A program made the position numbers and the translations under genes. The notes beneath the pieces are model-generated. The model was not told where the DNA came from. It was given only the letters and a program-made list of their open reading frames with translations, and searched no databases. 64,000 nt of DNA from Stegostoma tigrinum (lineage: Eukaryota), in NCBI RefSeq assembly GCF_030684315.1, contig NC_081373.1:30419989-30483988 (forward strand), in the 5' to 3' direction. The stretch's first letter is position 1. Every line of letters begins with the position of its first letter. Shown in pieces: positions 3,361 to 59,652 of the stretch.

Positions 3361-4103
3361 CTAAAACCAAAATTTGAATTTAAGAATCTGGAAACATATA
3401 GAATTTAAAGAATACCAGAAGTTAAATAGAACTTGGTTAGCAAGCAATTTACTACATTGTTTGGGTAACCAGAGGAAACATTAGGAATGTCAGAAAATTT
3501 TGATATAACCAGAAGAATGTAAAGTCCACACAGTCAAATTTCCAAACATATTCTACCTGCATTACAACTGCACTCTTCAAAACAGGGATGGTTCATTTCC
3601 ATTCTATTGTGTTGGATACTATTTCCCTTCCTTCCTGGGAACAAGCACTCAGCAATCAGAAGTCATGGACAGAAAAATCACAAGATGTGAGAATCTTTCA
3701 AAATGTTGCTTATGGAGTCCGAAGTCAGTATCTACACTGAAAGAGTCTCATTTTAAACAATGACTGGAAAAGAACAGTGATAAGTAAAGATTCAGTAGTA
3801 AGCTATATAAAGTTGCCACTTGATCAAGCTGTAAATTGGGAGAGGGGAGTGTGCAGCAGGACCTGAGCATCTTTGCCCACCAGTCAGTAAAGAAGGCAAA
3901 TGGTACGTCAGCTTTCATTGCAAGAGGTTTTGAGCACAGGAGTATGGCTGAGTTGTTGCAGTTATACAGAGCCTTGGTGAAACCACACCTAGCATACTGT
4001 ATCAGAGATAATGGGAACTGCAGATGCTGGAGATTCCAAGATAATAAAATGTGAGGCTGGATGAACACAGCAGGCGAAGCAGCATCTCAGGAGCACAAAA
4101 GCT

Positions 4104-4131
4104 GACGTTTCGGGCCTAGACCCTTCATCAG
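4104..4131 (-). ncRNA. Minimal hammerhead ribozyme motif (mirror copy, sense to OAT)
   Basis: Exact reverse complement of 7375-7402. Confidence 0.75.
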
Positions 4132-7100
4132 AGAGGGGGATGGGGGGAGGGAACTGGAATAAATAGGGAGAGAGGGGGAGGCGGACCGAAGATGGAGAGC
4201 AAAGAAGATAGGTGGAGAGGGTGTAGGTGGGGAGGTAGGGAGGGGATAGGTCAGTCCAGGGAAGACGGACAGGTCAAGGAGGTGGGATGAGGTTAGTAGG
4301 TAGCTGGGGGTGCGGCTGGGGGTGGGAGGAAGGGATGGGTGAGAGGAAGAACCGGTTAGGGAGGCAGAGACAGGTTGGACTGGTTTTGGGATGCAGTGGG
4401 TGGGGGGGAAGAGCTGGGCTGGTTGTGTGGTGCAGTGGGGGGAGGGGATGAACTGGGCTGGTTTAGGGATGCAGTGGGGGAAGGGGAGATTTTGAAACTG
4501 GTGAAGTCCACATTGATACCATATGGCTGCAGGGTTCCCAGGCGGAATATGAGTTGCTGTTCCTGCAAGCCTTCGGGTGGCATCATTGTGGCAGTGCAGG
4601 AGGCCCATGATGGACATGTCATCAAGAGAATGGGAGGGGGAGTGGAAATGGTTTGCGACTGGGAGGTGCAGTTGTTTGTTGCGAACTGAGCGGAGGTGTT
4701 CTGCAAAGCGGTCCCCAAGCCTCCGCTTGGTTTCCCCAATGTAGAGAAAGCCGCACCGGGTACAGTGGATGCAGTATACCACATTGGCAGATGTGCAGGT
4801 GAACCTCTGCTTAATGTGGAATGTCATCTTGGGGCCTGGGATGGGGGTGAGGGAGGAGGTGTGGGGACAAGTGTAGCATTTCCTGCGGTTGCAGGGGAAG
4901 GTGCCGGGTGTGGTGGGGTTGGAGGGCAGTGTGGAGCGAACAAGGGAGTCACGGAGAGAGTGGTCTCTCCGGAAAGCAGACAGGGGTGGGGATGGAAAAA
5001 TGTCTTGGGTGGTGGGGTCGGATTGTAAATGGCGGAAGTGTCGGAGGATAATGCGTTGTATCCGGAGGTTGGTAGGGTGGTGTGTGAGAACGAGGGGGAT
5101 CCTCTTGGGGCGGTTGTGGCGGGGGCGGGGTGTGAGGGATGTGTCGCGGGAAATGCGGGAGACGCGGTCAAGGGCGTTCTCAATCACCGTGGGGGGGAAG
5201 TTGCGGTCCTTAAAGAACTTGGACATCTGGGATGTGCGGGAGTGGAATGTCTTATCGTGGGAGCAGATGCGGCGGAGGCGGAGGAATTGGGAATAGGGGA
5301 TGGAGTTTTTGCAGGAGGGTGGGTGGGAGGAGGTGTATTCTAGGTAGCTGTGGGAGTCGGTGGGCTTGAAATGGACATCAGTTACAAGCTGGTTGCCTGA
5401 GATGGAGACTGAGAGGTCCAGGAAGGTGAGGGATGTGCTGGAGATGGCCCAGGTGAACTGAAGGTTGGGGTGGAAGGTGTTGGTGAAGTGGATGAACTGT
5501 TCGAGCTCCTCTGGGGAGCAAGAGGCGGCGCCGATACAGTCATCAATGTACCGGAGGAAGAGGTGGGGTTTGGGGCCTGTGTTGGTGCGGAAGATGGACT
5601 GTTCCACGTAACCTACAAAGAGGCAGGCATAGCTGGGGCCCATGCGGGTGCCCATGGCCACCCCCTTAGTCTGTAGGAAGTGGGAGGAGTCAAAAGAGAA
5701 GTTGTTGAGTGTGAGGACGAGTTCCGCTAGGCGGATGATAGTGTCGGTGGAGGGGGCCTGGTCGGGCCTGCGGGACAGGAAGAAGCGGAGGGCCTTGAGG
5801 CCATCTCCATGCGGAATGCAGGTGTACAGGGACTGGACGTCCATGGTGAATATGAGGTGTTGGGGGCCAGGGAATTGGAAGTCCTGGAGGAGGTGGAGGG
5901 CGTGGGTGGTGTCACGGACATAGGTGGGGAGTTCCTGGACCAAAGGGGAGAAAATGGAGTGGAGTGACTGTATCGGCGCCGCCTCTTGCTCCCCAGAGGA
6001 GCTCGAACAGTTCATCCACTTCACCAACACCTTCCACCCCAACCTTCAGTTCACCTGGGCCATCTCCAGCACATCCCTCACCTTCCTGGACCTCTCAGTC
6101 TCCATCTCAGGCAACCAGCTTGTAACTGATGTCCATTTCAAGCCCACCGACTCCCACAGCTACCTAGAATACACCTCCTCCCACCCACCCTCCTGCAAAA
6201 ACTCCATCCCCTATTCCCAATTCCTCCGCCTCCGCCGCATCTGCTCCCACGATAAGACATTCCACTCCCGCACATCCCAGATGTCCAAGTTCTTTAAGGA
6301 CCGCAACTTCCCCCCCACGGTGATTGAGAACGCCCTTGACCGCGTCTCCCGCATTTCCCGCGACACATCCCTCACACCCCGCCCCCGCCACAACCGCCCC
6401 AAGAGGATCCCCCTCGTTCTCACACACCACCCTACCAACCTCCGGATACAACGCATTATCCTCCGACACTTCCGCCATTTACAATCCGACCCCACCACCC
6501 AAGACATTTTTCCATCCCCACCCCTGTCTGCTTTCCGGAGAGACCACTCTCTCCGTGACTCCCTTGTTCGCTCCACACTGCCCTCCAACCCCACCACACC
6601 CGGCACCTTCCCCTGCAACCGCAGGAAATGCTACACTTGTCCCCACACCTCCTCCCTCACCCCCATCCCAGGCCCCAAGATGACATTCCACATTAAGCAG
6701 AGGTTCACCTGCACATCTGCCAATGTGGTATACTGCATCCACTGTACCCGGTGCGGCTTTCTCTACATTGGGGAAACCAAGCGGAGGCTTGGGGACCGCT
6801 TTGCAGAACACCTCCGCTCAGTTCGCAACAAACAACTGCACCTCCCAGTCGCAAACCATTTCCACTCCCCCTCCCATTCTCTTGATGACATGTCCATCAT
6901 GGGCCTCCTGCACTGCCACAATGATGCCACCCGAAGGTTGCAGGAACAGCAACTCATATTCCGCCTGGGAACCCTGCAGCCATATGGTATCAATGTGGAC
7001 TTCACCAGTTTCAAAATCTCCCCTTCCCCCACTGCATCCCTAAACCAGCCCAGTTCATCCCCTCCCCCCACTGCACCACACAACCAGCCCAGCTCTTCCC

Positions 7101-7374
7101 CCCCACCCACTGCATCCCAAAACCAGTCCAACCTGTCTCTGCCTCCCTAACCGGTTCTTCCTCTCACCCATCCCTTCCTCCCACCCCCAGCCGCACCCCC
7201 AGCTACCTACTAACCTCATCCCACCTCCTTGACCTGTCCGTCTTCCCTGGACTGACCTATCCCCTCCCTACCTCCCCACCTACACCCTCTCCACCTATCT
7301 TCTTTGCTCTCCATCTTCGGTCCGCCTCCCCCTCTCTCCCTATTTATTCCAGTTCCCTCCCCCCATCCCCCTCT

Positions 7375-7402
7375 CTGATGAAGGGTCTAGGCCCGAAACG
7401 TC
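7375..7402 (+). ncRNA. Minimal hammerhead ribozyme motif in PLE 3' region
   Basis: CTGATGA-A-GGGT CTAG GCCC-GAAAC-GTC: catalytic core boxes, stem II, short palindromic stem III (ACGT), GUC triplet. Confidence 0.75.
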
Positions 7403-9107
7403 AGCTTTTGTGCTCCTGAGATGCTGCTTGGCCTGCTGTGTTCATCCAGCCTCACATTTTATTACCTAGCATACTGTACGCAGTTTTGGTCTTCTTTTCT
7501 GAAGAAGGATGCTCTTGCTCTCAAGGGAGTGCAGTGAAGGTTTACCAGGCTGATTCCGGGGATGGCGGTCCAGATGCAATAGCAGAGATTGACTAAGTTG
7601 GGATTGATTTTTCTAGAGTTCAGACAAATGAAGGGGTAAATCTCAGACTTAGAATTCTAACAGGACTGGACAGGGTAGATGCAGGGAGAATGTTTCCACT
7701 GGTGGGGATGTTCCCTCAGGGTAGACGATTTAAGATGGAGATGAGGACACATTACTTCATCCAAACAGTGATGAGCTTGCGGAATTCATTACCACAGGAA
7801 GTAGTGGATGCCAAAACACTGAATGATTCAAGAAGCAACTAGACATAGCATTTGGATTAAAGGTTATGGAGAGAAAGCAGGATTAGGCTTTTGAGTTGGA
7901 CAATCAACCATGATCATGATGAATGGCGGAGCAGACTCAAAAAGCCAAATAGCCTCCTCCTGCTCCTATCTTCTATGTTTCTATGTAAACTTGAAATATT
8001 AGACAAGGGAACAAGATCACAATAGGCTGGACTGTAATTATTTAATTAATTTTTGTACAGCTAATAAAAATAAACATTAGATGAAAAAGGAAAGCAGGAG
8101 AAGCAACAAGCCTTAAAATAAAATCAATCTGTTGGTCATTGTCTCAAGGGTCAGAAGTAGCACATTAACTCCCTGTAAGGAACAAGAAATCATACCGTGT
8201 TTACCAAATATTCCAAAGACAGAGAAAATTGGTCTCAAAAAAAAGTACACAAGTTTTTCTTGTAGAGGAAATCAGTGAAAGCAAGCTGCCATGTAAAGCC
8301 CATGACAGGACAAATGCTTATGCACTTATGATTAAGCCCAGGTGGGCTATCAGTAAGATACGGAGGTATACATGTGGCCTGAATACTGACTCGGTAAAAT
8401 TTGCTTGGAAAGCAGGGATTTACTCACTCAACTGTTATCTGGTTCTAAGCCCAAAAAGGAGTTTACTCAAAAAAAAGTATTTTATACTGTTGAAATGTTC
8501 ACCATGCATTCACAGAAGGAACGTGTCATGTACAAAAAGGCAATAATCTGAAGATTGACCTTAAGGTAGTTGAAAATTAAATTTAATTGTTTTTTTACAT
8601 GTTGCTTCAGTCTCTGGGAATGATTGGTTACAACTAGCAGCATCTTACCTGAAAGTCAGATTAACTTCAAAAATTCAAAGAAAAAAACGTAACAAAACTG
8701 GGAGAAATGTTGTCCAAAAAACAGTAGATATTAAGCACTTAAATGATTAATAAATAAAACATGGTTTCCCTTAACATTAGCAAATAAACAGAAAAATTAT
8801 AGAATTAGTCAGGTCAACGTTGCACATGTGAAATAGATCTCCATGTGCCTGATCTTCAACTTTCTACATAATGAGATACTGAACAGAGGACAAACACATC
8901 CTTGCATTCATTCACAAGTATCCCCTATGTACATTCTTATTGAGCTTTTAAAAGATGTGCTTCAGGTATTGATGATATAGTTGCTATAAAGGCACTGATT
9001 CATATGAGTGAAATGGAATAGGATTTCAGCACGCCATAAGAAAAAAGTCTTCAATTTTACAGTTGCACGGTGAAGCCTACAGTAAAAAAAAATCATTGTC
9101 TACTAAC

Positions 9108-12686: not shown

Positions 12687-12817
12687 AGAAGTTGGGAAGT
12701 TATGTTGGATTTGTACAGGATGTTGGTGAGGCTACACTTGGAGTACTGTGTCCAATTTTCATCACCTTGTTATAGGAAGGATGTTATTAAACAGGAAAGC
12801 AACACAAGAAATTTACA

Positions 12818-13000
12818 GCGATAATGGGAACTGCAGATGCTGGAGAATTCAAGATAATTAAATGAGGCTGGATGAACACAGCAGGCCCAGCAGCATCTCA
12901 GGAGCACCTCTGATGAAGGGTCTAGGCCCGAAACGTCAGCTTTTGTGCTCCTGAGATGCTGCTGGGCCTGCTGTGTTCATCCAGCCTCACATTTCATTAT
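12818..13000. mobile_element. Mini-hairpin formed from two PLE 3' ends
   Basis: Same termini as 4002-7463. 14-bp TSD ACAAGAAATTTACA at 12804-12817 and 13001-13014; inserted in a CR1. Confidence 0.88.
12910..12937 (+). ncRNA. Minimal hammerhead ribozyme motif in mini-hairpin PLE
   Basis: CTGATGAAGGGTCTAGGCCCGAAACGTC. Confidence 0.7.
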
Positions 13001-13439
13001 ACAAGAAATTTACAAGCATGTTTCCAGGACTGAAGGGGCAGTTACAGGAGGAAGTTGGTCAAGTTAAGACTTTTTCTTTATAGCATAGGAGATTGAGGGG
13101 GGATCTTAGAGAAGTGCATAAGATCATGAGAGGCATGGATAGGGTGAATGCACTCAGTTTTTTCCCTGGGTTGGGGCATTAAGGTAAGAGGAGAAAGAAT
13201 ACATGGGTACATGAGGAGCATTTTTAAAAATAAAAACAGGATGGTAAGCATATGGAATGAACTGACAGCAGAAGTGGTTGAGGCAGGTACAGTAACATGT
13301 AAAAGGCATTTGAACAAATACATGGTTAAGATTTAGAAGGACATGGGCCAAAGACAGGGAAGTAGCATTGGCGGTGATGGGCATTTTGGTCGTCTGAACG
13401 GTCTGTCTCTATGCTGAGAGATTCTAGGACTCTAAGTAA

Positions 13440-16045: not shown

Positions 16046-17616
16046 AAAGAGGAAAAAATGATTGACAGACTCACATTTCCTACTTGGTATGCATGATGTC
16101 GTTGCTGCCAGAATTCCTACACAATCTAGGCAATGCACAACATTTGCCTAATTCTTCAATTATATCCCAGAGAAGGCAAAATCTTAACATATTACATATC
16201 CAGAATGCAATCTGCTGTCTGACATCACAATCACATTGTATCACACCCAAGAAGTGCCTCTCCCCATACAACTATGCAACCAACTAAATGCAGTGTATTT
16301 GTCTGAAGTAACCATGCAAGTTAGCTCACAAGCATACATGTTTAGGATAACTTCTCATGAAGAACAAAAATCAAAAAGTGAACGAGTAATGCAAGATTGA
16401 ACAAATTCAAATAATGTCATTATGTATACAGAATTCATGTAATAAAGTCTGCATAACTGCTAATTTCAGTGCCAATAGAAACTTGGAACATATTGTATTC
16501 TGAAAGGCTGTTATACTTTCAGATGATGCAACATTCAGGAACTATTGCTCTATTTAACAGAGGATTAGTTTATACAGCCAAGGATGAACACCTCTCACCC
16601 AAACAGCGACGTACAAATATTTACAGAAACTGATTTTATTGTATTTTGAAACAGACTAAGCCACAAGGTAATCAACTGGAAGGCAATTTATTTTCTGGTT
16701 TATTCCATTCTCGCTCCAGAGGTTAGCCCCAAATGATTATTCTGTGAAGCCTCAGTTTGCAATTTTAATAAAATCCTATTGTGAACCAAACAATACCATT
16801 GCAGACATGTAAACCAAAATTGCATTTGTGGAAAATCTAAAACAAAGAGATAATGCTGTAAATACTAAACTAAAACAGCATCTGTAAACACAAAAACAAC
16901 TTAGGTCAGGAGGTGTAACCATAAAATATTGTTTTGCTCTACAAATGCTGACTCATTTCCAGCATTTCAGTTATTATGTTATTGTATTTACAAGCACTTT
17001 GGTTCAAACCTGAAATTATAAACTATTCCTCTTGCTGACATCAAAAAGCATTTACACAAAAAGGTTTTACTTTGTAATCAAACCCCCAATTAAAACAAAA
17101 AATGTTGCTTGTTAAACTACACACAAACCCAAAGATGGGTATTATTTTACATTTGACATGTTACAAAGTGATCTGCGAACATTCAATTTTTTAAAAATCT
17201 AAGAATTGGGACTTGAAAAATTTCAATTAAAATCTTTGACATTTAGAATGTGCTAAGGCTAAATCGAATAGATTGAGGTACAAAGGCTGTAGCTGGACTG
17301 AAATGTTATGTGTGCATAATTTATAATTCACAAGTTGAGTCTTAGTTAAACATCATTCCTCCTTTTGAAATCAGATTGGAAAATATCTGATAAAAAGATT
17401 GATGAAAGATCAATTCAAATCAAATCAAAAACCAAAGTCTGATCAGGTTTGTTTCTACTGTATTTTAGCTTCTTATGATGAAATCAGAACTGAAACCATC
17501 ACTACATTTCACACCAAAATGCAAAATATCGCCATTAGCAAAATCAAGTTTGCTTCACCTCAGTAGTTAGGATTTGGCAGAATCACCCGAATAAACCAGG
17601 CAGAGTCAGTCAGCAT

Positions 17617-17835
17617 AATAAAATGTGAGGCTGGATGAACACAGCAGGCCAAGCAGCATCTCAGGAGCGCAAAAGCTGACGTTTCGGGCCTAGACCCTTC
17701 AAGGGTCTAGGCCCGAAACGTCAGCTTTTGTGCTGCTGAGATGCTGCTTGGCCTGCTGTGTTCATCCAGCCTCACATTTTATTATCTTGGAATTCTCCAG
17801 CATCTGCAGTTCCCATTATCTCTGATACTATTTTA
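17617..17835. mobile_element. Mini-hairpin formed from two PLE 3' ends (near-perfect palindrome centred at 17700)
   Basis: Arms ~17615-17699 and 17701-17785, tail to 17835. TSD AGAGTCA(G/C)TCAGCAT at 17602-17616 and 17836-17850. Confidence 0.88.
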
Positions 17836-18516
17836 AGAGTCACTCAGCATGTCAGTTGCTGATTGGTTAGCAAGTACTGACCCACTGCAACACCCCTCAC
17901 CATAAAAGGAAAGTGTTTCTAAACAAAACATGACATTTGCAACCTTCAAGCAACATCCAAAATAATTTTGCATTCAATACACATTTGATAAATAGTCATA
18001 CAAATAGCACCTTAAAAATCAAACAAGAGTAAAATTTGTCAATTAAAAAAACAAACAAAAAATGCTTTAAAATGCCCCTAAACATAGGCATTTTTTTAAA
18101 TTTCAAAAATACACTTTTCATAAAATCACCTTTGTATACATATAGTCACTAATGCAATTCAATTCTGTACAGCAGTACACGAAGAAACAAACACAGAAGA
18201 TTGACCGATCCAGCAAACAAACCAAAGGCATTTCTTGTGTGAGATTATATTCCAATGTAACCAATACGGCATTTATAAATTCTCCAAATGGTGCAGCAAA
18301 ACCAAGTGGGATAGATATTTGTTGAGGAATATTTTTGGCAGTTCAGCAACTCATGGGCAAGTCCTGTGCGGGCTAATCACCAGCTCCCTCTCTATCGAGG
18401 AGCTTGTGACTCCAAACTTATGTTTTTCGTTGAACATGTTGCAAACTGAAGACAAAAGAAACACCTTCCCCACCCACAACATGTATGCAATCTCATCAGA
18501 ACGCTCGAAGAACTTC

Positions 18517-19905
18517 AGAGACAAGAAGGTGGACAGCTGGATGAACACAGCAGACCAAGCAGCATCAGAGCAGCACGAAGGCTGACATTTCAGGCCGAGA
18601 CCCTTCTTCAAAAATGGGGAAAGGGTAAGGGGGTTCTGAAATAAATTGGGACAGAGGGGGAGGCGGATAGAAGATGGATAGAGGAGAAGATTGGTCGAGA
18701 GGAGACAGACAGGTCAAGGAAGCAAGGATGGAGCCAGTAAAGGTGAGTGTAGGTGGGGAGGTAGGAAGGAGATAGGTGCGGGATGAGGTTAGCAGTTAGG
18801 AGATGGAGGTGGGGCTTGAGGTGGGAGAAAGGACAGATTGCGGAGGCAGGGACAAGCTGGGCTGGTTTTGGGATGCAGTAGGAGGAGGGGGGATTTTGAA
18901 GCTTGTGAAATCCACATTGATAACATTGGGCTGCAGGGTTCCCAAGCGGAATATGAGTTGCTGTTCCTGCAACATTCGGGTGGCATCGTTGTGGCAATGC
19001 AGGAAGCCCAGGATGGAGATGCCGTCTGCAGAATGGGAGGGGGAGTTGAAATAGTTCACAACTGGGAGGTGCAGTTGTTGAGTGTGAACAGAGCATAGGT
19101 TTTCTGCAAAGCGGCCCCCAAGCCTCTGCTTGGTTTCCCAGATGGAGAGGGGGCCACAACAGGGAACAGTGGATGCAGTATATCAAATGTTCACTAAGCA
19201 AATGTTCACCTGCACATCTGCTAATGCAGAAAAAGTCTTCTTGGGGCCTGGGATAGGGGTGAGGGAGAAGGTTTAGGGACAGGTGTAGCACTTCCTGCAG
19301 TTGCAGGGAAAAGTGCCACGTGAAGTGGGGCTGGAGGGGAGTGTGGAGCGGACGAGGGAGTCATGGAGAGAGTAGTCTCTCTGGAAAGCAGATAAGGGTT
19401 GGTAGGGAAAAAATGTCTTTGCTGGTGGGGTCAGATTGCAGGTGGCGGTAGTGTCAGGAGATGATGCATTGGATCCGGAGGCTGGTGGGGTGGTATGTGA
19501 GGATGAGGGGATTCTGTTTTGGTTGTTATAGTGGAGAGGGGGTGTGAGGGATAAGTTGTGGGAGACACAGTCGAGAGCTTCTCGGCCACGGTTGGGTGGG
19601 GGGGGGGGTTGCAGTCCTTGAAAAATGAGGACATCTGAGAAGTATGGGAGTGGAATGTCTCATCCTGTGGCAGAGGCAATGGAATTGGGAACAGGGGCTG
19701 GAATTTTTGCAGTAAGGTGGGTGGGAGATGGTGTATTCTAGGTAACTGTGGGAGTCAGTGGGCTTGAAATGGATATCGGCCTGTAGGTGGCTGCCAGAGA
19801 CGGTGACAGGGGTGTCCAGGAAGGTGAGGGAGGTATTAGAGATGATCCAAGTGAACTTAAGGTTGGGGTGGAAGGTATTGGTGAAGTGGATGAACTGTTC
19901 AGCTC
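18517..19905 (-). mobile_element. Older degraded Neptune-type PLE, 5'-truncated
   Basis: Frameshifted fragments EQFIHFTNTFHPNLKFTW, FKPTDSHSYLEY and EQQLIFRLGTLQPN, homologous to 4002-5964. Confidence 0.88.
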
Positions 19906-19939
19906 CCCAGATAACGGTCAGCCCACCCTCTCCGATTAA

Positions 19940-31946: not shown

Positions 31947-32153
31947 AGAGATAGTAGGATCTGCCGATGCTGGAGAATCTGAGATAACAAGGCAGAGAGC
32001 TGAATGAACACAGCAGGCCAGGCAGCATCAGAGGAGCAGGAAAGCTGACATTTTGAGTCTCCAGAGAAGGGTCCAGACCCAAAACGTCAGCTTTCCTGCT
32101 CCTCTGATGCTGCCTGGCCTGCTGTGTTCATCCAGCTCTACACCTTGTTATCT
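31947..32153. mobile_element. Mini-hairpin from PLE 3' ends (related, older subfamily)
   Basis: Inverted arms; 14-bp TSD CTTACTAATTCCTT at 31933-31946 and 32154-32167. Confidence 0.85.
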
Positions 32154-32202
32154 CTTACTAATTCCTTTTCTGCTTTTACCAATGGACACTGACATTTTAT
32201 GA

Positions 32203-34130: not shown

Positions 34131-36313
34131 CCAAACATTACTGTTAATTGGAATTTCCTGATATCAGTTGGAATTAGAAAAATATTGAAATATCAACCAG
34201 CTTGCTAAATAAGTCATATTGAAGGTAAACCACTTTATCAGTCAAAAAAAAATGTACTATGTTGAGCTGCGTTCATTTGAAGATGGTGAATGTGAAGTAA
34301 ACAACACTATAATGACTGGAGTTTGCAAGTAGACAAAAAAACTGTTGTCAAGTGCTAACCCACAGCTGTGATAGTTGAAAGGTCAATTTGTTAAAACAGT
34401 TAAGAAAAAAAACAAGCAGAACATTATCTTTAATCAAACTGAGGAAGTGAAAAGTGGAATCCATTCTTCTCAACAACCGAAGGTTTAGTTTGATTTAGTT
34501 TAATTAAAAATAATAAAATTGAAGACCTGTTAGATTGAACATTAAACAACATTTATTAAATTGTAGGTAAAGGCCAAGTTCACAGCAATGTCCATTTCTT
34601 ACAATTTACCATTATATTCTACTTAATTTCACTTTCAACCACTTATGTTACAAAGCTACTGCAGCAAAATCGCTATTGGTTTCTGAAAGTCCTGATGTGT
34701 GTACTTGCACCATATGTACAAATATATATTTATGTGCATGTTCTCACATCTATTATATGTTGTTTATTATGTTAGAATGATGTACTTTAATGTAAGAAAG
34801 AAAAGTAGAAGCATTCAGTCACATTGGATATGACTCAATAATAAAACTACAAGCAGTAAATTATGTTATACAGTAACTCACATTAAAGCATATTTTACAA
34901 TTGCATGAGTTTTTGATTTTATAAGAACTCGTAAATTTAATGTAATTTTGATATTTCTTATTTTTCATTAACTATATTTTAGCTCCCTCATAAATGCTAA
35001 TTTACTCTCAACTGCAAATATTTACAAGCTCCTGAAGACTCCATTTACTAATTTCCAGAAGTAATTAAATACAGCAAATTGTTGCTATTTTACCAGAAAA
35101 AATGGCTATTACAAGCATGCAATAAATAAGAAAGTTATATAAATCTGATGACATGGGCAAGAAACCTTGGAAAACCCTTCTGCATCCCAAAATTCATGAT
35201 AACTATTCCAACTTGTTCACTCAAAAAGATTCCTCATCAATAATAAAAACATGTAAACTTATATTATCGTTTCCAGTCATACTTAAAACCTTACTGACAG
35301 TAGATTTCAACAACAGCAGATCCAGTAACATTATTGCTCATTACAAGCAGTTACATTTGTTACATTTGTGCATTTGTTCTCTCATCTGGCAAGGAAATAT
35401 TATACCATTATATGAAACGTATCTTTCATAAATAAATGTCATTTTTTTGTATTGTAAACTTTCCTCTTATTGATGTTGCTGTCATCATAAATCTAATTGA
35501 CATTTTTAGTGTTATTTGTGTTTCAATTTTTTAGATCCATTTATTTCAATACTTGATACAAAGACAAGAAATCATAAATGTAGGAAATAGAGTTATCATT
35601 CCAAGCATTTCTGTTACTTAGTAGGTGACCCTAGTAACAATCAATGTCAATATATGGCTCTGTACATTTGGTGGAGATAGTCAGTCTCCTATTTAATTTC
35701 TCATCAAACTGGACTTTCTTAATATACAACAACTTAGTTTCCCATTGCAGAACCTAAGTCTATTAAGCATTCCAGAATGGATTGTTTATTGCAACTAAAC
35801 TTAGAAAAAGGAAATTATTTTTTAAAAAAACCACAAGGAGCATGTGGAAACATAGTGTATGCTCTGTGATGATGAGACCCTGATGTTTATATTAGCCATT
35901 AGATATCTTCCACTCTTTCTTATTAGCCAAATGATGATGACTGCACATGATATTAATATAATTTCATTTCTGCCATTAATTCATCAATTGATTATTTTTA
36001 TCAGAGTCCAGAATAAATAGTTTCAAGTATGCTGAATGTCAAACTTCTGGAATAATTTCTATGTCAGTACATTGTGCAAGAACTAAAACTAACCAAAGCC
36101 TCCCCATCTACGTTGTCTTCTTCACCAAGCCATCCTTCTCTCTCACTTTTGTTTGATTTCTCATAATTTCACAATAAAAATCATATATTTTAACTAATGA
36201 GATATGTATTTTTCCACATATATAAAACATTCATAAGTTAGTGTCAATAATTGCATGCTCAAAAGGACAGAACTTAAACATTAATAGAAGGAGACAAGAA
36301 GTTGAAGCTTTTT

Positions 36314-36827
36314 AAGATAATAAAATGTGAGGCTGGATGAACACAGCAGGCCAAGCAGCATCTCAGGAGCACAAAAGCTGACGTTTCGGGCCTAGACCCT
36401 TCATCAGAGAGGGGGATGGGGAGAGGGAACTGGAATAAATAGGGAGAGAGGGGGAGGCGGACCGAAGATGGAGAGTAAAGAAGATAAGTGGACAGAGTAT
36501 AGGTGGGGAGGTAGGGAGGGGATAGGTCAGTCCAGGGAAGACGGACAGGTCAAGGAGGTGGGATGAGGTTAGTAGGTAGATGGGGGTGCGGCTTGGGGTG
36601 GGAGGAAGGGATAGGTGAGAGGAAGAACCGGTTAGGGAGGCAGAGACAGGTTGGACTGGTTTTGGGATGCAGTGGGTGGGGGGGAAGAGCTGGGCTGGTT
36701 GTGTGGTGCGGTGGGGGGAGGGGACGAACTGGGCTGGTTTAGGGATGCGGTGGGGGAAGGGGAGATTTTGAAACTGGTGAAGTCCACATTGATACCATTA
36801 GGCTGCAGGGTTCCCAGGCGGACTATG
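36314..36827 (-). mobile_element. Single-armed 5'-truncated copy of the young PLE
   Basis: Near-identical to ~4038-4556; 14-bp TSD AGTTGAAGCTTTTT at 36300-36313 and 36828-36841. Confidence 0.88.
36380..36407 (-). ncRNA. Minimal hammerhead ribozyme motif in truncated PLE
   Basis: Reverse complement of CTGATGAAGGGTCTAGGCCCGAAACGTC. Confidence 0.7.
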
Positions 36828-37139
36828 AGTTGAAGCTTTTTGTCTGGCACATATCAGGACCAGAACACCAGGTAATATTTTGAAATAAAAAGGTACCATT
36901 TTATACAGTATGAGAAGTGGTACTAATTGTCTGGGCCATATTTGGCATGGAGATGTAACAAGGACAGGAAACTATCAATCTTAATTCTCAGACCAGGCAG
37001 TTGATTCTCACTGGTCAAAGTATGTGAAATTTAGCTGTCTCCATGACCCCTGTTTTGAAAAGGGAACAAGTAGCTACAAATTCCTTTTGGCTACATAAAA
37101 TAGGATCCTGAATAATAATTCATGCACATACATCACTGC

Positions 37140-37220
37140 AGATAACAAGGTGTGGAGCTGGAGGAACACAGCAGGCCAGGCAGCAGCAGAGGAGCAGGAA
37201 AGCTAATGTTTTGGGTTGCT
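37140..37220 (-). mobile_element. Short PLE 3'-end fragment
   Basis: gataacaaggtgtggagctggaggaacacagcaggccaggcagc resembles one arm of the mini-hairpins. Confidence 0.65.
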
Positions 37221-38212
37221 CGCTTCTTCTCACTCTGCAGACCTGGTGGATAATCTTAATTGGTTTATGGTGCACCTGTTAGCACAGTCTGTATTTTTTT
37301 ATAAATCATTTCAAATAGCAGAATTATTTCTAATGGTGGATATATTCCTCTTGCAAGCATGAGCTGATCGCATGTGAGTTGTATATTGCCCACTCGGATT
37401 GGTCTATTGAACATGTTGATTGATATGGAGAATCTGTCATTGGGACAGTGATTATTAAATATTTAGTTAATTAATTAGTCTCTAACCAAATGATTATCCT
37501 CAACATCAATACAGCATTTGACCATGTGTAGCACAAAGGATCCCTAAAAATATTGCAATCATCAGAAATGTGTGGTATACACGCCACTGATTGGAGTCAT
37601 ACACAATGCAAATGAAGTTGGCAATGGTTGCTGGAATTAAATCACCTTAGTCCTAGTACAGTTCTGCGGTGTTCATCAACATATTGACCTTGGGCCAACC
37701 ATTTTCAGCTGTTTCATCAAAGATCTGCCCTCCATCATAAAGTCAGAAGTAGGATGCTCACTGAAATGTAGCAAAAAAAAACCTGTGCCACAAAAGGGCC
37801 AGACAATGGTCATCTCCAATGAGAAGGGATCTAATTATCTCCTCTTCATATTCAAAGTCATTAACATGACTGAACTCCCCCTTCAACAACATCCTGGCCC
37901 AAGAATACTGAAATTACAAAAGCATGTCAGAGGATAGACATTGGGAGACAAGAACTCACCTCCTGATCTGACAATACCCTGTACATCACAGACAATACTC
38001 AAGTCAGGAGTATGATGAAATAAATTCCACTTGCTTGGATTAGTGTATCTGCAAAACGCAATTGCAAGTGGGGATGAGCAAAAAATATTGGCCTTTGACA
38101 GTGCTCACATGCTACGAAGTAAAGATATTTAAGAGAATTTTGAAGGAGAAACATGTACTAATGTGAAGGCTTTTTGTAACAGAATACTGAAAGCAATACC
38201 AAGATGATTGAG

Positions 38213-38409
38213 ATAACAAGGTATAGAGCTGGATAAACACAGCAGGCCGAGCAGTATCAGAGGAGCAGGAAGGCTGACATTTCGGAAAGGTCTAGGCCTG
38301 AAACGTCAGCCTTTCTGCTCTTCTGATTCTGCTTGGCCTGCTGTGTTCATCCAATTGTACACCTTGTTATCTCAGATTCTCCAGCATCTGCAGTTTCTGC
38401 TATCTCTGA
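38213..38409. mobile_element. Mini-hairpin from PLE 3' ends (related, older subfamily)
   Basis: Inverted arms plus tail; 15-bp TSD ACCAAGATGATTGAG at 38198-38212 and 38410-38424. Confidence 0.85.
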
Positions 38410-41400
38410 ACCAAGATGATTGAGCCTGCTAATGGAATGGAATTGTGAAATAGGGTAGAATCAGAAGAATTGCACATACAGGCTAAAATATGGATGTGAA
38501 AGAATATTAAAAAGTCATATTTTCTTTAAACATTGATCCAATGAAGATATTTTACAGTTCCAAATGCTTCCATTTTAATTACAATAATGTTCCAAAGATA
38601 CATGACTTTTCCAAGTAAAGCCTACATTGTTAATTATTGCTTGTTGTAAAATGAAAGACAAATGTTGCTGCGTTTTATTTCTGTTTGATATTGCTGAGGA
38701 AATGCTGCATTTTGAAAAATGATCTGGATTAGATTTCCATTCAGAACTCTGCATGTGAGTACTATCTTCATTGTTTGTCCAATGCAAAAATCAAATGTGT
38801 TGTAAAGTACCATTCTTCACTGTTAAACACCAGGACTGACTATCAAATCATGGTGTGATATTCTATTTGCAAACCGTTCCAGTTTGATCACAAAATGCTA
38901 GTGTCTTCTGGATTTTTTATTCAAACTTAGCTATGATTTGAGCGATATCATAAGAGTGGCAGTGGCCAATTCTGGAAGTCCTAGGCGATAAGACTGACAT
39001 ACTTAAAGTGACAGTCTTAGAGTTATCAACTGTGATTTACTGAAATCTCAATGTGAATAGAAAATGATTGCAAGCTTCAGTAATGTACCATAACCCATAC
39101 ATTAGGCCTAATTATTTCACAGGGGCCTGTAGAAAGAATCTTTGTTGAAAGGATTTCAATCACAGTGAAGCTACCATTAAGCATAAGTTTAATTATTCAG
39201 ATATGAACTCATTATTTTTTATATAGAGAGGTACTAATTTAGAAATTGAATTTTAATATTCCTTCGTTAAATGAAAAATGATGGAAGTTAAAAGAAATGA
39301 CAAAAATTATTTTTGTTTTATTTTGCACTTTGAATTATATTGAATCATTTTATGATGTGAAAAGGACTGTATGAATACAAATTTTCATTGCTTTAAACAC
39401 ACATGGATACTTTCTGCTGTTCCAATTCTGTTAATTTGTTTGGTAGCCATCTAATTATTTTTTCTTATTCTCTGTTGGTAATTCTCCTATCCACTTACCC
39501 TCAGATGGCACAGGGTCTTCCAGATGGTAGATTTTCCTGCTCTGCAACCCAAAGAATTAGGCCCACTGCCATTTAGCACTGAGGAATGCCAGTTGTCTGG
39601 AGATGGAACTCCAAACAGCAGCCAGTACTGGGAATGCATGCAGTTCCCTGATTCAGGAAAGTATAGGGCTTTTCATGGTGGAGAGGGAATGTGAAGCCTG
39701 TGTCATGGGAAATGGTGGTAATGGAGAGAGTGTTGATGGAGAAACAAGGGTGGGAGAGTGCACAGGGCCAAACCAGGGAGAGAGCAACAAACATTGAAAG
39801 GTGGCCCTTTCAAGCCGGTTACCTGCTGTACTTAGTCCTCCTGCTGAACTTCTTCCACCAGCCTCATTTTGAGAGAGGACAGGAAGCATCCCTTAAAAGC
39901 ACCTCAATTGTAGCAGAAAGGATGGGCTGCTCTTGGTCTCATGTAACACCATACACTCCCCACCATCCCTGCCCACCAAGCCCTCCACCACAACTGAAAA
40001 ATTGCTGACAATCCAGGGAGAGGAAGGCAGCCAGGAGTCCCCTCTATCTCCTGCAAATGAGCCAACAGGAGATGTTAAAACTTTGCTCATGGATCTGAAA
40101 GGTGCTAGTGATTATTTGACATACAGCAAAGGAACTCTCCCAGTGTTGTGAAATCATTATTCCTTAGCCAACACCGCCAGTAACAGACTATCTGGTCATT
40201 CATCCCATTATTGCAGTTGGGATTCAGATCTACACAACTTTGTTGTCAGGTTTTCTTACTAGACAAAAGTGACAGTATTTCCAAAGTAATACTTATTTTC
40301 GGGTGCTTGGAGATGTGAAGGTTGCTATATAAATGCAACTCCTGATTGTCTATTTAGCATCTTTTAAACCTACTTTCCAACACATTTAATCATCTTGAGG
40401 CTATCAGCATTGTTCCAAGATTTAAGCAGTTATAATGAACATTTTACAAGTATGATATAGTAATATCTGATGGACAATTTTCCAATGCACTAAAAGTAGA
40501 CCAAGATTCAAGGCTTATAATTGTATTTGTAGCTAAGTTTAGAAAATTATTTTCTGCAAGGTTTATTTAGGCAAAACAAATACTCTGATTTCAGCCAGTT
40601 AAAAATTCATCATGTTAAAGTATGGAGTATAGAAGTTGTTTAAACATTGCCTCTGTTCAATGTAAACATGTACAAAACTACATTCTTCCCAAAAATTTGG
40701 ATCATGTAGAGATTGTTTCTTTAGTCCACAATATTGTTTCCAACTTGTGCCTGAAATATGTTAATAATGCACTTACACTAGTTTACATTCATTTCCTATG
40801 GATTCCCAATTTATTTTAATGGTTAATTTATATAAGGATACAATGGTGCAGTCAGACAGTTTCTGTTCTTTTCTAAACTTTATTCTTATATGTTAGTGTT
40901 TTATTTGAATAATTTACAGCATACACATAAACATGGACCATATGTATCTGAAAGCATGTGAAATTTAATATGTATACACTCTCTCAAAGCCAGGAGCCAT
41001 GAAACCAAAGTCATGTTGTTATTGATTTTGCCAGGTTTCAAGTCAGTTATTTGGGCATGGGCGGTTTCGGTGAATTCCCGGTCCAATGGGGTCAAGGGAC
41101 ACTTGAAACTGAAATATACCATTAATGTTAGTGACAAAGCACATAACAAGTGCAACACCTAGCTGAATTGTCCACATGTGTTATTTTTAATTAAAAATTG
41201 ATCAGCATATTTGAGAAAATGTTCAGTTTTTGAATTTTAGACACTTGGTTTAGAGAGATTGTACACGTACTAGGAAACTGAAGTTAAATAACAGTAAAAT
41301 CCAACTAAAAAATTTAATAACTTAATAATATTGCAATGTTCATGGTTTGCCAGTTTTTAACCATTTTATCTTTGGATTATCACAGAGCTTGTCTGGATTG

Positions 41401-42462: not shown

Positions 42463-43152
<690 letters not shown>

Positions 43153-48000: not shown

Positions 48001-50676
48001 TGCCCTCTCGCCCTTTAGACACTGTCCAACGGGCTACAGCTTGCTCCGCAGATCAGGCAAGACAGCGATTCTGTCACAAATTGAGCGGGAACGCGCACAC
48101 GAATTCACTTTGGAGTTAAAACTGACTTTTAAGTCAACGCCAGCCACTTCACACCTGACTCCGAAATTATTAACGAATGCTTTAGATTTATGGTAATCAG
48201 TTTTGTCCGTTTTAAACAGAGATTGCGGGGTATCTACACATTGAAGTAACCACTGCTCCAGTGCTGGTTTTGTGGGGCTCCTTTTCTAGTTTGGAGCTGG
48301 TCTGTTGAACGTCTGGCTACAGTGACAGAGACTAATAATAACAGTGCACGTGGTATAAAGCCCAGCAGCAGATCAGCTATTAACACTACAGAGGCCTTTG
48401 GATATGCATGGGCAGGTTCGCCACGTGTGATTGCAATAATAGTTTAGCTGAACATCAAAGGGATCTCTACTGACATCACAGTATATAGAAAACAAAGGTT
48501 TCTTTTGTTGGAAAATACTTAATTTCAGTTAACTGTTGCAGTAAATGAAGAATCATTTAACAAAAAATACTTCCTACAGCTGTTTTTTGTCTGAATTCTG
48601 CCTACTCTACCAACACATTTGAATGGATCTTCAGGATAGAATATTCTTTAACAAGTTAACCTTTTTATTTACAATGAGATAAACAAGTTTAAATAACAGG
48701 TATAAAGTCATTAATGCATCGGTATTTGGCCATTTTAATTTGCAATCTCAATTCTGAATCAAATTTAGAAAATGTATACCAAATAATTGGAATCAATTAT
48801 TCTACTAACTCTGGCCCTGCTGTTAATTATTTCCCAATCTCAGATTCCATTTGATCTTGCGCTGCATGATGTAATGATGTGCTAAGGACAGAGGTACAGT
48901 ATTTGCAATTCTTTACCCATCTCTTTTTTAGAGCGTTCATGTTTAAACATCGAACAAACACTTTTTGAAACGTTAGTTTCCAGCGCCTTACACAGCTGAG
49001 GAATTCAGCTGCTCTGTAGAGGCTACCCCTCAGGTTAAATCGGAATATTTACACAGTGCTTCAGCACTTTAAAATTGTGCGGGTGTAAATATGATATCGC
49101 CTCTAGTATAAAGGGCACCAAACTAGTCTATCTTTCAGTAAACCGTTCTTTTATCTGCTGGAAAAACCTCAAAAGCAAAACATAGCGTCGTTCACTTTCA
49201 CTAGGGGAGAGCATTTTCGAAATAGCCAACAGAATCATACTTTAATTCGACCACTTTTTTCCTCCATTGTTATTGAAATGACACGAATTTACTTTGGATT
49301 AACCTGTTGTGGATAGCATTTTCAACGTCGAAGAAAATGCTCTAAAACCCATTCGATTCAGTCCATCTGGGACTTCTTGCAAATCAGCAGAACAATTCCT
49401 GTTGCACTTTAACCGTCCATCCGGCACTGCAATTATACCCCATTGTCCGCTCTAATTACATGGATCTTTTAAAAAACATTATGTAGATCAATTCATTTGC
49501 ATCTGTTAATACTTTTAGAGGCGTTCCCAGACTGTGGAAATACAGAGAGCGGGAGGATACATCTCATGTCAATGTTATAGTCATCCTGCACCCAGCTGGC
49601 AATGCAAATAAAGCTTGAACACATCATTACACCCACTTTGGACTAACTTCTCATAAGCCTGTTGTTTTTTCTTCAATTTAACTAGCACTCTGACTTTAAA
49701 AAATAGGACTCAAGTTTTTTTTTCCCTTGGTATTTAATGTGCTGCAAAAAGTCGAATGCCTATCACACATATCAAAGTGACCATTCCTAGCCTTTACTGT
49801 CACCGATCTTTGGGCTCCAACGTGTTTTAAAAATCTTGCGGTTAAATCTGCGACGAAAGACACAGCAGTACTGAACTGTCTAAAAAAATGATACTGAGCT
49901 ATGGCAGCCTCACCTTCTGAAGACAGTAACGAGGCTCCAGCAGATATTTTTAAGATGTTAATTATCTGATATTTATTTGTTTAAATATTGCAGTGGCATT
50001 TAAACATTTATTATCGTGCGATTTGAAAAAGAGTCGGGGCTTTGGTATTTCTTGCATCTGAGTCCAAATTATTTGTAATACAAAAAGAGAAATTGCTGGA
50101 GAAACTCAGCAGGTCAGGCAGTGTCGTCTTGGACTATTTCTGTTTTTGTTTCAGATTCTCGGCATCCGCAGTTTTCTATTTTAGTCCTAGTACACACACA
50201 GGGATGTCTTCCAGACCTGGGATCTTTGCTTGATGCAGCGACAGGAATGCAATTTCAATAAGTGAAACTCATACCAAGCCATATTCAAAGCGTTATGGCA
50301 GTAATGAAATGTAATTTCATGGTAGTCAATTTACGTAATGTACTGATTCACAAATTCTATACAGGTATGTTGTGGCCGAATGATTTTGCTTTATTCCATC
50401 TGCTACCATTACCAGTTTCCTAGTAACTTCTGCAACGCACTTACCTTAGAAATGTCGTCAACAGCAAAAGGCTCGCTTGACTTACTTCCTTAGTATATTG
50501 TTTCTAATGTCTTGCACTTTGAAGTCCATGTTATCAATGGCCTGAGATATCCCACTATTATGGATGGCTGTCATATTGGGTAAATGTTACAATTGAAAAG
50601 TGTTCTCAATTTTGCACAAAAACACAAATTGCTGGAAAATCTCAGCAGGTCTGGCGGCATCAGTGAAGGAAAAAAC

Positions 50677-50714
50677 AGTTAACGTTTCGGGTCCGGAGAC
50701 CCTTCCTCAGAACT
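50677..50714 (-). ncRNA. Minimal type-I hammerhead ribozyme motif of a second, probably PLE-derived family
   Basis: Minus strand AGTT-CTGAGGA-A-GGGTC TCCG GACCC-GAAA-CGTT-AACT: 4-bp stem I, CUGANGA, 5-bp stem II, GAAA, palindromic AACGTT. Confidence 0.72.
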
Positions 50715-53012: not shown

Positions 53013-53846
53013 GTGAGTGGCAAACCTGCATTGCAAGCACTTTCGCTCAGCCGGGGAGAAGCTCACCTCCAGTTCTCTGTGGAGTGGCACAGCGTCGGTT
53101 CCTTACCAGGCAAACAACAAACACTAGCCTTTTTGAGGATATTGTATATGCCGCTGACTCTCTTAGAATATACAATAGAGTGTGGTGGCCAGCCTCCACC
53201 TCTTTAGTGGCTACTAATGAACCATAAAAACTGGACCGAACAATCGAGTGGTACAAAAACAGAAAGTGCTGGAGAAATAGACTTGCTGAGTTTCTCCGGC
53301 GCTTTCTGTTATTTTGTTTCAGATCGCCAGCAACCGCTTTGTTTTGTTTTAATCAAATAGTTCAGTCTGTTTCTGGCCGAGACACCCAACATATTCACTC
53401 GACTCCTCCATTTATTTTGAAAACCATCTATTATTTAAATTTCCAGAGTTTTCCTTAAAAGCTCCCACTCTTTGTGATATCAGCTGAAAGTGCTGGGGTA
53501 AAACCCGCTGAACACAACATAGCAAAAGCTCATTCCCTTAGATTTCGTACTGCACACCTTCATAACTTTATTGTAGTTGAAACTTAAATAACAATCCCAA
53601 GTGTTTTTCTTTCCCTAAATAGACTCCTTTTTCTATTTTTTTCAAATTGACACTTTGCTTGAAATCACACAGGACGACTGACATTCATTGAGTGTATTGG
53701 GAAATTAGAAAAGCCTCCAATGATTTTATGAAACAGTTCTGTGACCTAAATGATGATAGGGAGGGAAATGTCAGCTAAGATCCAATTCCAGTTTGTTATC
53801 CATCTATTAGATGTGACCTGGGCTTAGAACAATATTAGGCTAGCTA

Positions 53847-54501: not shown

Positions 54502-54809
54502 GTTGTAGTGATCTCCGTCCTGTCCACTGTCACCCAGAAGAATATAAAATCATACAGCATGGAAACAGACCCTTTGATGCAACCAGTCTGTGCTGAATTA
54601 AACTAGTCCGACCTGCCTGCTCCTGGCGCTATCCCTCCAAACCTATAGATAGGAATATTTATATACCTATCTAAATGTCTTTTGAATGTTGTAATTGTAC
54701 CCACATCTACGACTTCCTTAGGAAGTCCATTCTACCTGTGAACCACCCTCTGGAGCCTCATCCAACAAGTTTACAGGAAGGCGGGCATTACCACCCTGCA
54801 TCTCCCGAC

Positions 54810-58339: not shown

Positions 58340-59105
58340 TTTTATTCATTCACGGGTGTGGGCTTTATTGACAGCCAGCATTTATTGCGCATCCCTGAAT
58401 ACCCTTGAGAAGGTAGTGATGTGCTGCCTTTTTGAACAGTTGCACTCTGTTTGGTGTAGGTATACCCACAGTGCTGGTAGGGAAGTAAAGGATTTCCAGG
58501 GTTTTGATGCAGCGACATCAAAGTAATGGAAATATATTTCTAAGAGATGGCGCGTGGCTTGTGAGGAACTTGCAATTGGTGCTGTTCCCATATATCTGCT
58601 GCTCTGATCTTTCTAGATGGCAGTGTTCACGTGATTAGAAGGTGCTATTAAAGCAGCTTTGGGGAATTTCTGAAATGCATATTGTAGATGGTACACAGTG
58701 CTACTACTGAGCTTCAGTGGTGGATGAACTGAACGTGTGTATGTGGCACCAGTCAAGTGGGCTGCTTTGTCCTGTGTGGTGTCAAGCTTTTTGAGTGTTG
58801 CAGGAGCTGAACTCATCCAAGCAAATGAGGTATAATTCAGCTCACTCTTGACTAGTGCCTAGTAGATGGTGGACAAGGAGCCAGAAGGTGAGTCACTTGT
58901 GCAGGGTTCCTGCTCTAATAGGCACAGTATTTATACAGCTAGCCTGGTTCAGTTTTTGGTTCATATTAAATCCTTGGCTGTTAATAGTGCATGATTCAAT
59001 GATGTTACTGTCATTGAATATCTAGGGTCATGGATAGATTTTCTTTTGTTAGAGATGATCATTGCCTGGCAGTTGTGTGACATGAATGCCAGTTGTTAGC
59101 CCAAA
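58340..59105 (-). mobile_element. L2/CR1-group LINE 3' fragment
   Basis: Minus-strand ORF remnant MSSAPATLKKLDTTQDKAAHL; 3' tail shared with the SINE at 59119-59652. Confidence 0.6.
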
Positions 59106-59118
59106 CTGGATATTATTT

Positions 59119-59652
59119 GGCGAAGGCAATGGCCTAATGGTATTATAACTGGACCATTAATCCAGAGACCCAGATACTGTACTAGGGATAACAAAGTGTA
59201 GAGCTGGATGAACACAGCAGGCCAAGCAGCATCAGAGAAGTAGGAAAGCTGACATTTCAGGTCTCGACCCGAAACGTCAGCTTTCCTGCTCCTCTGATGC
59301 TGCTAGGCCTGCTGTATTCATCCAGCTCTGCACCTTGTTAGCTCAGATTCTCCAGCATCAGCAGTTCCTACTATTTCTCTACTACTGTACTAGGGACCCG
59401 GGTTTGAATCCCGCCGTGGCAGATGATGGAATTAAGAGACTAATGATGATTGTGAATCGATTATGGATAGTTGGAAAAACTCCTCTGGTTCACTGATGTC
59501 CTTCAGGGAAGGAAACTGCCATCTTTACCTGATCGGGGCTACATGTGACTCCAGACCCACAGCAATGTGGTTGACTCTCAACTGCCCTATGGGCAATTAG
59601 GGATGGGCAATAAATGCTGCCTAGCCAGTGATGCCCTCATGAATGAATAAAG
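59119..59652 (+). mobile_element. tRNA-derived SINE with L2-type tail, interrupted by a PLE mini-hairpin
   Basis: A-box-like TGGCCTAATGG, B-box GGTTTGAATCC, tail gggcaataaatgctgcctagccag...gaatgaataaa. A related minus-strand copy lies at ~50770-51070. Confidence 0.7.
59189..59382. mobile_element. Mini-hairpin from PLE 3' ends, nested in a SINE
   Basis: Inverted arms plus tail; 14-bp TSD TACTGTACTAGGGA at 59175-59188 and 59383-59396. Confidence 0.85.

Follow-up and report, generated by a model that had tools for sequence, protein, structure and literature searches.

How does a retrotransposon come to leave short head-to-head hairpins that resemble miniature inverted-repeat transposable elements (MITEs)? 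We studied this in a 64 kb stretch of Stegostoma tigrinum NC_081373.1 (the window), from which all loci, paralogues and statistics below are drawn and which carries copies of a Penelope-like element (PLE). PLEs have been described with an inverted, 5'-truncated copy and a 30-40-bp tail at one end (PMC8557442; PMC3846280; PMC2377424), and the available text of PMC8557442 states that the formation of such inverted one-tailed insertions is unresolved. Our results suggest that the insertions in the window were probably formed de novo by a Neptune-type PLE, through twin target-primed reverse transcription (TPRT) at a symmetric cut.

Layout of the Penelope-like insertions

Loci were listed from a profile scan (21 matches in the window, none on the reversed window) and by manual reading. 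We found 14 loci carrying the pseudo-long terminal repeat (pLTR) of the element, eight two-ended and six single-armed, belonging to at least three subfamilies. A sequence-only reading of the window had listed six two-ended insertions of common head-to-head layout with a one-sided tail, plus one single-armed copy, all with target-site duplications (TSDs) of 14-15 bp. All seven are real and lie where it placed them, but the list was incomplete. In the six, both 3' ends face outward, one end is tailed and the other tailless, and the seven TSDs measure 14, 14, 14, 14, 15, 15 and 15 bp and abut the element ends. The same TSD length occurs in two subfamilies and in the single-armed copy. The proposed "size series" was mistaken, as sizes are bimodal, with five insertions of 183-219 bp and one (E1) of 3462 bp. 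That reading saw the layout but recognised neither the target motif nor the hammerhead ribozyme in the middle of the hairpins.

The seven insertions with a clear TSD are listed here, with element positions numbered so that -1 is the last tail base of E1.

E1 left TSD, 3987..4001, plus strand: apparently 15 bp, or 14 should the base in common with the tailless end derive from the element
E1 tailed arm, 4002..5963, minus strand: 37-nt tail, pLTR, 3' untranslated region (UTR), GIY-YIG endonuclease (EN), linker and reverse transcriptase (RT); the RT begins just upstream of its core motifs and the arm's 5' end is at 5958-5963
E1 tailed-arm hammerhead core, 4104..4131, minus strand: predicted minimal type I, in the pLTR, from a motif scan
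E1 tailless arm, 5964..7463, plus strand: 5'-truncated RT C-terminus, CX4CxxC linker, GIY-YIG with CCHH, 3' UTR; stop at 7150, hammerhead core at 7375-7402
E1 right TSD, 7464..7478, plus strand: the target is an old CR1-type long interspersed element (LINE) piece
E2, 12804..13014: 14-bp TSDs at 12804-12817 and 13001-13014; sits in a CR1 piece
E2 tailed arm, 12818-12907, minus strand: 5' end at -95
E2 tailless arm, 12908-13000, plus strand: 5' end at -132, entire hammerhead core, blunt junction
E3, 17602..17850: TSDs at 17602-17616 and 17836-17850, 15 bp with one mismatch
E3 tailless arm, 17617-17701, minus strand: 5' end at -126
E3 tailed arm, 17701-17835, plus strand: 5' end at -124, 10 extra nt at the tail end, arms overlapping by 1 nt
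E4 (subfamily B), 31933..32167: 14-bp TSDs at 31933-31946 and 32154-32167
E4 tailed arm, 31947-~32060, minus strand: 5' end at -116
E4 tailless arm, ~32065-32153, plus strand: 5' end at -126
S5, 36300..36841, minus strand: 14-bp TSDs at 36300-36313 and 36828-36841
S5 arm, 36314-36827, minus strand: single, tailless, 5' end at -554
E6 (subfamily B), 38198..38424: TSDs at 38198-38212 and 38410-38424, 15 bp apparent, 14 by motif register
E6 tailless arm, 38213-38284, minus strand: 5' end at -112
E6 tailed arm, 38284-38409, plus strand: 5' end at -125
E7 (subfamily B), 59175..59396: 14-bp TSDs at 59175-59188 and 59383-59396
E7 tailless arm, 59189-~59263, minus strand
E7 tailed arm, ~59260-59382, plus strand: junction overlap of 4-5 nt, in hammerhead stem II

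TSD length

As a control, 990 random pairs from the window were compared. Their longest exact repeat was mostly 5-7 nt and reached 14 nt or more in four pairs, some of which may be real loci as the control was unmasked. At several insertion ends 1-4 nt can be assigned to either TSD or element. With chance extension allowed, a fixed stagger of 14 fitted best (log-likelihood -6.1, against -11.8 for 13), and a stagger of 15 alone is impossible. All seven TSDs are compatible with one 14-nt stagger. In single-armed S5 the 5' junction shows a LINE-like microhomology of 5 nt and the TSD is again 14 bp, indicating that the position of the second nick is independent of what the second end primes on.

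Target motif and empty sites

Alignment of the 14 inferred nicks revealed a common motif (~YDGKTTY) beyond the TSD, occupying +3 to +9 of the nicked strand. A motif of this kind lies beyond both nicks and the target is thus mirror-symmetric. The half-sites of E1 are as follows.

E1 left half-site, 3979..3985, minus strand: ~YDGKTTY at +3..+9 from the inferred bottom-strand nick
E1 right half-site, 7481..7487, plus strand

The best 6-nt motif window was matched by none of 5,000 window-wide draws and none of 20,000 local-null draws. A profile built from the seven tailless-end nicks predicted the remaining seven, which none of 200,000 draws matched; training in the opposite direction gave P = 3.5e-5. 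When one locus at a time was left out, 9 of the 14 half-sites fell in the top 5% of background. Two of the five half-sites outside it, those in E1 and E6, improve with a one-base shift, made post hoc, that gives 14-bp TSDs. We found no (TA)n insertion bias, with none of the seven rebuilt targets being a microsatellite; this bias is a tendency attributed to the linker, not a defining trait.

Both E1 and E2 have CR1-type targets for which paralogues in the window align across the rebuilt target. These empty sites, paralogous rather than orthologous, carry a single copy of the repeat (three paralogues for E1 and two for E2). The E1 and E2 duplications were therefore made at insertion, and the pre-existing pair of repeats that the sequence-only reading had considered as a counter-explanation was not seen. 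Among the paralogous empty sites used are 53844-54501 and 59826-60483, a 658-bp direct repeat of CR1-type LINE sequence that is 96.7% identical.

Outer ends and the single tail

Tailless ends fall at -41..-35 and tailed ends at -4..+3, except in E3, which extends 10 nt further. The tail measures ~34-38 nt in the eight two-ended loci and is present exactly once in all eight (P <= 0.004 if the ends chose independently). Single arms are tailless in five of six cases. Outside the seven insertions above, the remaining seven pLTR loci are apparently older or more degraded, with either no TSD or a degraded candidate (two candidates).

E10, 50071..50184: two-ended copy of older subfamily C, only its right arm tailed, TSD not recognised
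E12, 53253..53350: two-ended copy of older subfamily C, only its right arm tailed, degraded candidate TSD (10/14 match)
S8, 18514..19906, minus strand: old single tailless arm, ~79% identity to E1 in the open reading frame (ORF), TSD not found
S9, 37140..37216, minus strand: subfamily B, single tailless arm, 5' end at -113, no clear TSD
S11, 50617..50712, minus strand: subfamily C, single tailless arm that stops at the hammerhead core's 5' edge, degraded candidate TSD (11/15 match)
Very old single arm, 433..515, minus strand: tail present, second arm and TSD not found
Very old single arm, 27063..27136, plus strand: tailless, TSD not found

The tails of the two oldest two-ended loci, E10 and E12, were distinguished from random sequence at P = 0.002 and 0.04. 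E12 lies outside the training set of the target motif, and the half-sites at its candidate TSD scored P = 0.001 and 0.09; the flanks of E10, S9 and S11, scored in the same way, gave no clear support.

A sequential TPRT with a loosely placed second nick would make the narrow TSDs and the asymmetry small-sample effects, with the inverted arm produced by later independent priming. PLE TSDs are indeed called variable (PMC8557442), rotifer examples measuring 8, 9 and 10 bp (PMC3846280); there are only seven insertions to judge by, and a single enzyme that cuts twice would account for a motif at both nicks. We nevertheless consider this explanation unlikely. Seven TSDs within 2 nt of each other have a probability of 1.6e-5 under a uniform distribution of 7-20, the length recurs across subfamilies and in S5, and the one-tail rule holds at 8/8 loci.

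The 10 nt by which the E3 tail passes the others (17826-17835) begin with 3 nt matching the start of the E1 TSD, and are probably element sequence. Just 5' of the old arm at 27063, a short stretch (~27040-27062) resembles the reverse complement of the hammerhead region and is a possible remnant of a second arm. The 5' end of S8 adjoins a GC-rich, CpG-island-like stretch (19906-20670), and no TSD was found on that side.

RNA folding of six pLTR/tail sequences gave structures no more stable than shuffles (z -0.8 to +0.4), and the pLTR/tail consensus contained only a 4-bp hairpin without two-sided changes; we therefore claim no RNA structure at the RT start sites. Primer-RNA microhomology was weak: the 11 junctions had 15 nt in total, where the null mean is 7.3-9.4 (P = 0.02-0.09).

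Junctions between the arms

The five short hairpins have five different junctions, where the arms overlap by 0-1 nt, or by 4-5 nt in E7. Such diversity speaks against one unit having been amplified, whether by retroposition of a non-autonomous family like a short interspersed element (SINE) or retrozyme, or as a MITE by a DNA transposase. Such amplification is improbable for other reasons too: the termini are asymmetric, both outer ends coincide with RT start sites, not with a truncation point that varies, and layout and TSD are shared by E1, which at 3.5 kb carries RT and EN. On the other side stand the five similar-sized copies in 64 kb, the existence of non-autonomous pLTR derivatives (preprint 10.64898/2026.07.22.740005) and the inverted pairs of minimal hammerhead ribozymes (min-HHRs) 100-700 bp apart described in Schistosoma (PMC4209133).

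We then compared the arms within insertions. In E1 they differ at 2 positions in 1500 nt, indicating that this insertion is young, whereas E1 and S5 differ at 15 of 514. One of the two E1 differences is a 1-nt insertion at ~4569 in the tailed arm, which shifts the frame near the end of the endonuclease. Arms within one insertion also share variants (E2, E4 and E6), which could reflect a single source RNA. In two of the six insertions it is the tailless arm that extends further 5', by 37 nt in E2 and by ~10 nt in E4.

These comparisons bear on self-priming, the published explanation for head-to-head PLEs (PMC3846280). One strand, either antisense RNA as published or the first cDNA, would fold onto itself at a palindrome and serve as its own template; the tail would remain where the endonuclease shortened one end, and the hairpin centre would be altered by subsequent deletions. 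The near-identical arms with variants in common are as expected from it, as are the near-perfect palindromes at the centres of E3 and E7, the E7 join lying inside self-complementary stem II. With the longer tailless arms of E2 and E4, however, neither arm can be a plain fold-back copy unless a one-sided deletion followed. In the young E1 the loop spans 420 nt and no more than 1 nt pairs at the junction; E2 is blunt, and the symmetric target motif is not predicted by this model. Fold-back is therefore an unlikely source of these insertions, though a little less so than loose sequential TPRT.

The two arms of E2 each extend ~94 nt from their own start sites, so that the 37-nt offset between the starts recurs between their 5' ends. 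The lengths are as if two RTs had moved in step, a pattern seen in one of the six insertions.

5' ends in the hammerhead

The hammerhead core starts at -130, with predicted cleavage between -103 and -102. We found that 11 of 20 arms (the set without the later-found loci 433..515 and 27063..27136) have their 5' ends at -132..-112, a 21-nt window covering the hammerhead core and stem II. These ends lie 10-30 nt beyond the cleavage site, at which no arm ends, and only the E2 tailless arm retains a complete core among the five hairpins. Such clustering was matched by none of 50,000 draws from a broad length null. It is suggestive of an RT stop zone in the hammerhead, which may be due to a folded or dimerised ribozyme or to the 5' end of the RNA lying nearby. 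That RT ran off RNA already cleaved by the hammerhead was also considered, and rejected, as no arm ends at -102.

Long palindromes are unstable, and the hairpins could in principle be long inverted insertions like E1 that collapsed through deletion of the palindrome centre. The oldest two-ended copies, E10 and E12, do have the shortest arms. Against this, S9 and S11, which as single arms have no palindrome that could collapse, stop in the same hammerhead window, and the young subfamily-A copies E2 and E3 are already short, making collapse the least probable of the explanations considered.

Proposed mechanism

The preferred reading is twin TPRT. Two GIY-YIG domains would bind the two inverted ~YDGKTTY half-sites, as the target statistics suggest, and place one nick in each strand, 14 nt apart, which would leave 3' overhangs of that length. 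Priming from one overhang would start RT within the RNA (~-39), and priming from the other would start it at the end of the tail (~-2). The corresponding genomic ends are observed here and two starts have been demonstrated in vitro for a related anole element. Copying of one RNA twice, by a leading and a trailing RT, would be the simplest reason for exactly one tail, and two RNAs on an asymmetric dimer would also fit. The former needs a strand-displacing RT without RNase H, as is the case for non-LTR-type RTs. RT would read through the uncleaved hammerhead site and often stop 10-30 nt beyond it, positions seen in the arms. The two cDNA ends would then join end to end, mostly with an overlap of 0-1 nt, and fill-in would give TSD-arm-arm-TSD. 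Should the second overhang anneal to the first cDNA instead, the product would have one arm but the same 14-bp TSD, as S5 does. The sequence fixes the geometry of the nicks, not their timing.

The sequence-only reading had likewise proposed a ~14-15-nt staggered cut with priming from both strands. The mirror motif at both inferred nicks supports this and the proposal fits everything tested, but much of it was already in print (PMC11167929, PMC8557442, PMC3846280). Broadly distributed TSD lengths, which it had taken to speak against a stagger, were not seen within the window (n = 7). Its view that MITE-looking hairpins can come from a retroelement also gains support, given that all five junctions differ and that fold-back alone cannot make E2 or E4. 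We infer that the hairpins are dead-end products and not an amplified family.

Several observations weigh against twin TPRT at a symmetric cut. The statistics are based on seven insertions in one window, a clear TSD being present at only 7 of the 14 pLTR loci. E3 looks like a true 15-bp TSD, and a scan of staggers by motif score peaked at 14 but was too broad to use. Five of the 14 half-sites were no better than background, and the motif window was picked after viewing the data, which the best-window null corrects and the leave-one-out test does not. The leading/trailing version expects the tailless arm usually to be further 5', yet the tailed arm is longer in E1, E6 and E12; E1 and E6 thus leave room for two RNAs. 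One very old single arm (433..515) is tailed, and the idea that tails are confined to two-ended loci is weakened by this one arm in six. The E7 junction fits fold-back equally well, and shared arm variants could instead come from later gene conversion. Against short-biased nulls, the clustering of 5' ends fell to P = 0.001-0.005 per arm and 0.03-0.07 per locus. The in vitro precedent belongs to the Poseidon clade and has an ATT preference, and the available text of PMC11167929 gives no stagger.

A further reading is that Neptune-type PLEs in general integrate by means of a two-fold symmetric complex, which acts on a spaced palindromic target with a fixed 14-nt 3' stagger, copies one RNA twice, with a leading and a trailing RT, from starts ~37 nt apart and is stopped by the ribozyme fold. 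We put this forward only tentatively. It would mean that a retroelement integrates with transposase-like target geometry, would account at once for inverted pLTRs and the one-sided tail, and would make many MITE-like shark repeats one-off retrotransposition products.

Identity of the element

A single ORF encodes an RT followed by a C-terminal GIY-YIG domain (RVT_1, E = 6.8e-5; GIY-YIG, E = 9.8e-4, both matches of the window protein being below curated cut-offs), and GIY-YIG was also matched by 12 of 13 alignment members. The CCHH motif, with two Cys inside the GIY-YIG core, is nearly invariant in the alignment (C260, C263, H298 and H304), and the CX4CxxC linker occupies residues 217-225 of the tailless-arm protein. 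A CX2-5CxxC RT-EN linker is reported for Neptune and Nematis and as absent from Penelope/Poseidon, and the CCHH definition likewise follows PMC8557442; vertebrates carry Neptune and Poseidon (preprint 10.64898/2026.07.22.740005). The element appears to be a C-terminal EN+ PLE of Neptune type, as judged from its linker and the vertebrate clade distribution, not from an RT tree. The nearest named proteins are from Rhincodon typus and Stegostoma tigrinum (88%), pointing to a carpet shark as the probable host, and a search for a full-length named shark protein found none. A PDB sequence search with the PLE alignment gave no meaningful match (best E = 0.02).

The pLTR carries a predicted minimal type I hammerhead. 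It has the traits given in the available text of PMC4209133, namely the core, the extra base between 9 and 10.1, the G-C closing pair and the palindromic helix III; in subfamily A helix I is only 2 bp. Rfam at gathering threshold returned no matches in the window, leaving the hammerhead undetected. The window holds no full-length copy that could show a partial tandem pLTR-ORF-pLTR. When bacterial and archaeal genome contigs were scanned for further copies with a 20-nt pLTR motif, there were no matches.

Decayed ORF pieces at 11016-12622 (plus strand), with weak similarity of 27-33% to PLE proteins, resemble an older, different PLE lineage and adjoin the CR1 piece that holds E2.

Comparison with known systems

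The copies resemble canonical C-terminal EN+ PLEs (Neptune/Nematis) in their RT and GIY-YIG with CCHH, CX2-5CxxC linker and pLTR hammerhead, and in having a 5'-truncated inverted copy at the 5' end, a TSD and, on one side only, a tail of 30-40 bp. Unlike these, their TSDs are near-fixed at 14-15 bp rather than variable (8-10 bp in rotifer), the target motif is symmetric and non-microsatellite, most copies are ORF-less hairpins and no partial tandem occurs in the window.

The anole Poseidon_Ac (PAc) protein cleaves and extends both strands in vitro, its RT starts at two adjacent internal sites bounding the tail, uncleaved RNA is the main template and a dimer is predicted (PMC11167929). The window copies share two RT starts bounding the tail, extension of both strands, a template uncleaved at the hammerhead and weak primer-RNA homology. 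They differ in clade and in the ATT preference of PAc, and inverted insertions, a fixed stagger and a one-tail rule are not derived in the available text of PMC11167929.

In L1 twin priming (PMC9148063) both overhangs also prime on element RNA and an inverted junction lies between the TSDs. There the second primer appears to land mid-RNA and the pieces not to overlap, judging from the description in PMC9148063. In the window, by contrast, the starts are fixed ~37 nt apart and the arms copy the same sequence, over 1500 nt in E1, and the element has no poly(A) and uses a GIY-YIG nuclease.

Non-LTR retrozymes and solo min-HHR pLTRs are likewise short non-coding pLTR derivatives with a type I hammerhead (PMC4209133; preprint 10.64898/2026.07.22.740005). 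Retrozymes, however, are head-to-tail tandems with intact ribozymes, whereas the hairpins are head-to-head and mostly cut inside the ribozyme. With MITEs they share a ~200-bp hairpin and a TSD, but the ends are asymmetric (one ~37 nt longer), the junctions unique and the sequence that of a retroelement. Their termini are those of the RT/EN-coding E1, not of an autonomous DNA transposon. The TSDs are also longer than those typical of transposases.

The architecture is thus ordinary: the head-to-head layout, one-sided tail, two RT starts and both-strand extension in vitro are already known for PLEs. The near-fixed TSD, mirror-image motif, one tail at 8/8 loci and five ribozyme-centred hairpins with five junctions are apparently new, in that they were not found in the surveyed papers. 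That literature, excluding Repbase/Dfam, subscription papers and image-only supplements of PMC11167929, contained no fixed TSD, symmetric target motif or twin priming for PLEs. The available text of preprint 10.64898/2026.07.22.740005, PMC8969392, PMC9977147, PMC7599744, PMC9148063 and PMC12910113 likewise gave no PLE target motif or fixed TSD.

The loci supply precise values that can be put to the test, namely a 14-nt 3' stagger, a stop zone, two RNA starts and a target motif, and tie the 2024 in vitro results to genomic structure. If true genome-wide, the pattern would define PLE integration geometry and give a substrate design for biochemical and structural work, and hairpin-with-TSD repeats in such genomes may be misfiled as MITEs.

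Other features of the window

Class III aminotransferase exons (Pfam Aminotran_3) lie at 1476-1841 on the minus strand and resemble those of ornithine aminotransferase. A homeodomain exon, similar to the NK1 class, occupies 42463-43152 (minus strand). At 23746-24586, also on the minus strand, is a decayed LTR-retrotransposon pol fragment (RT_RNaseH_2).

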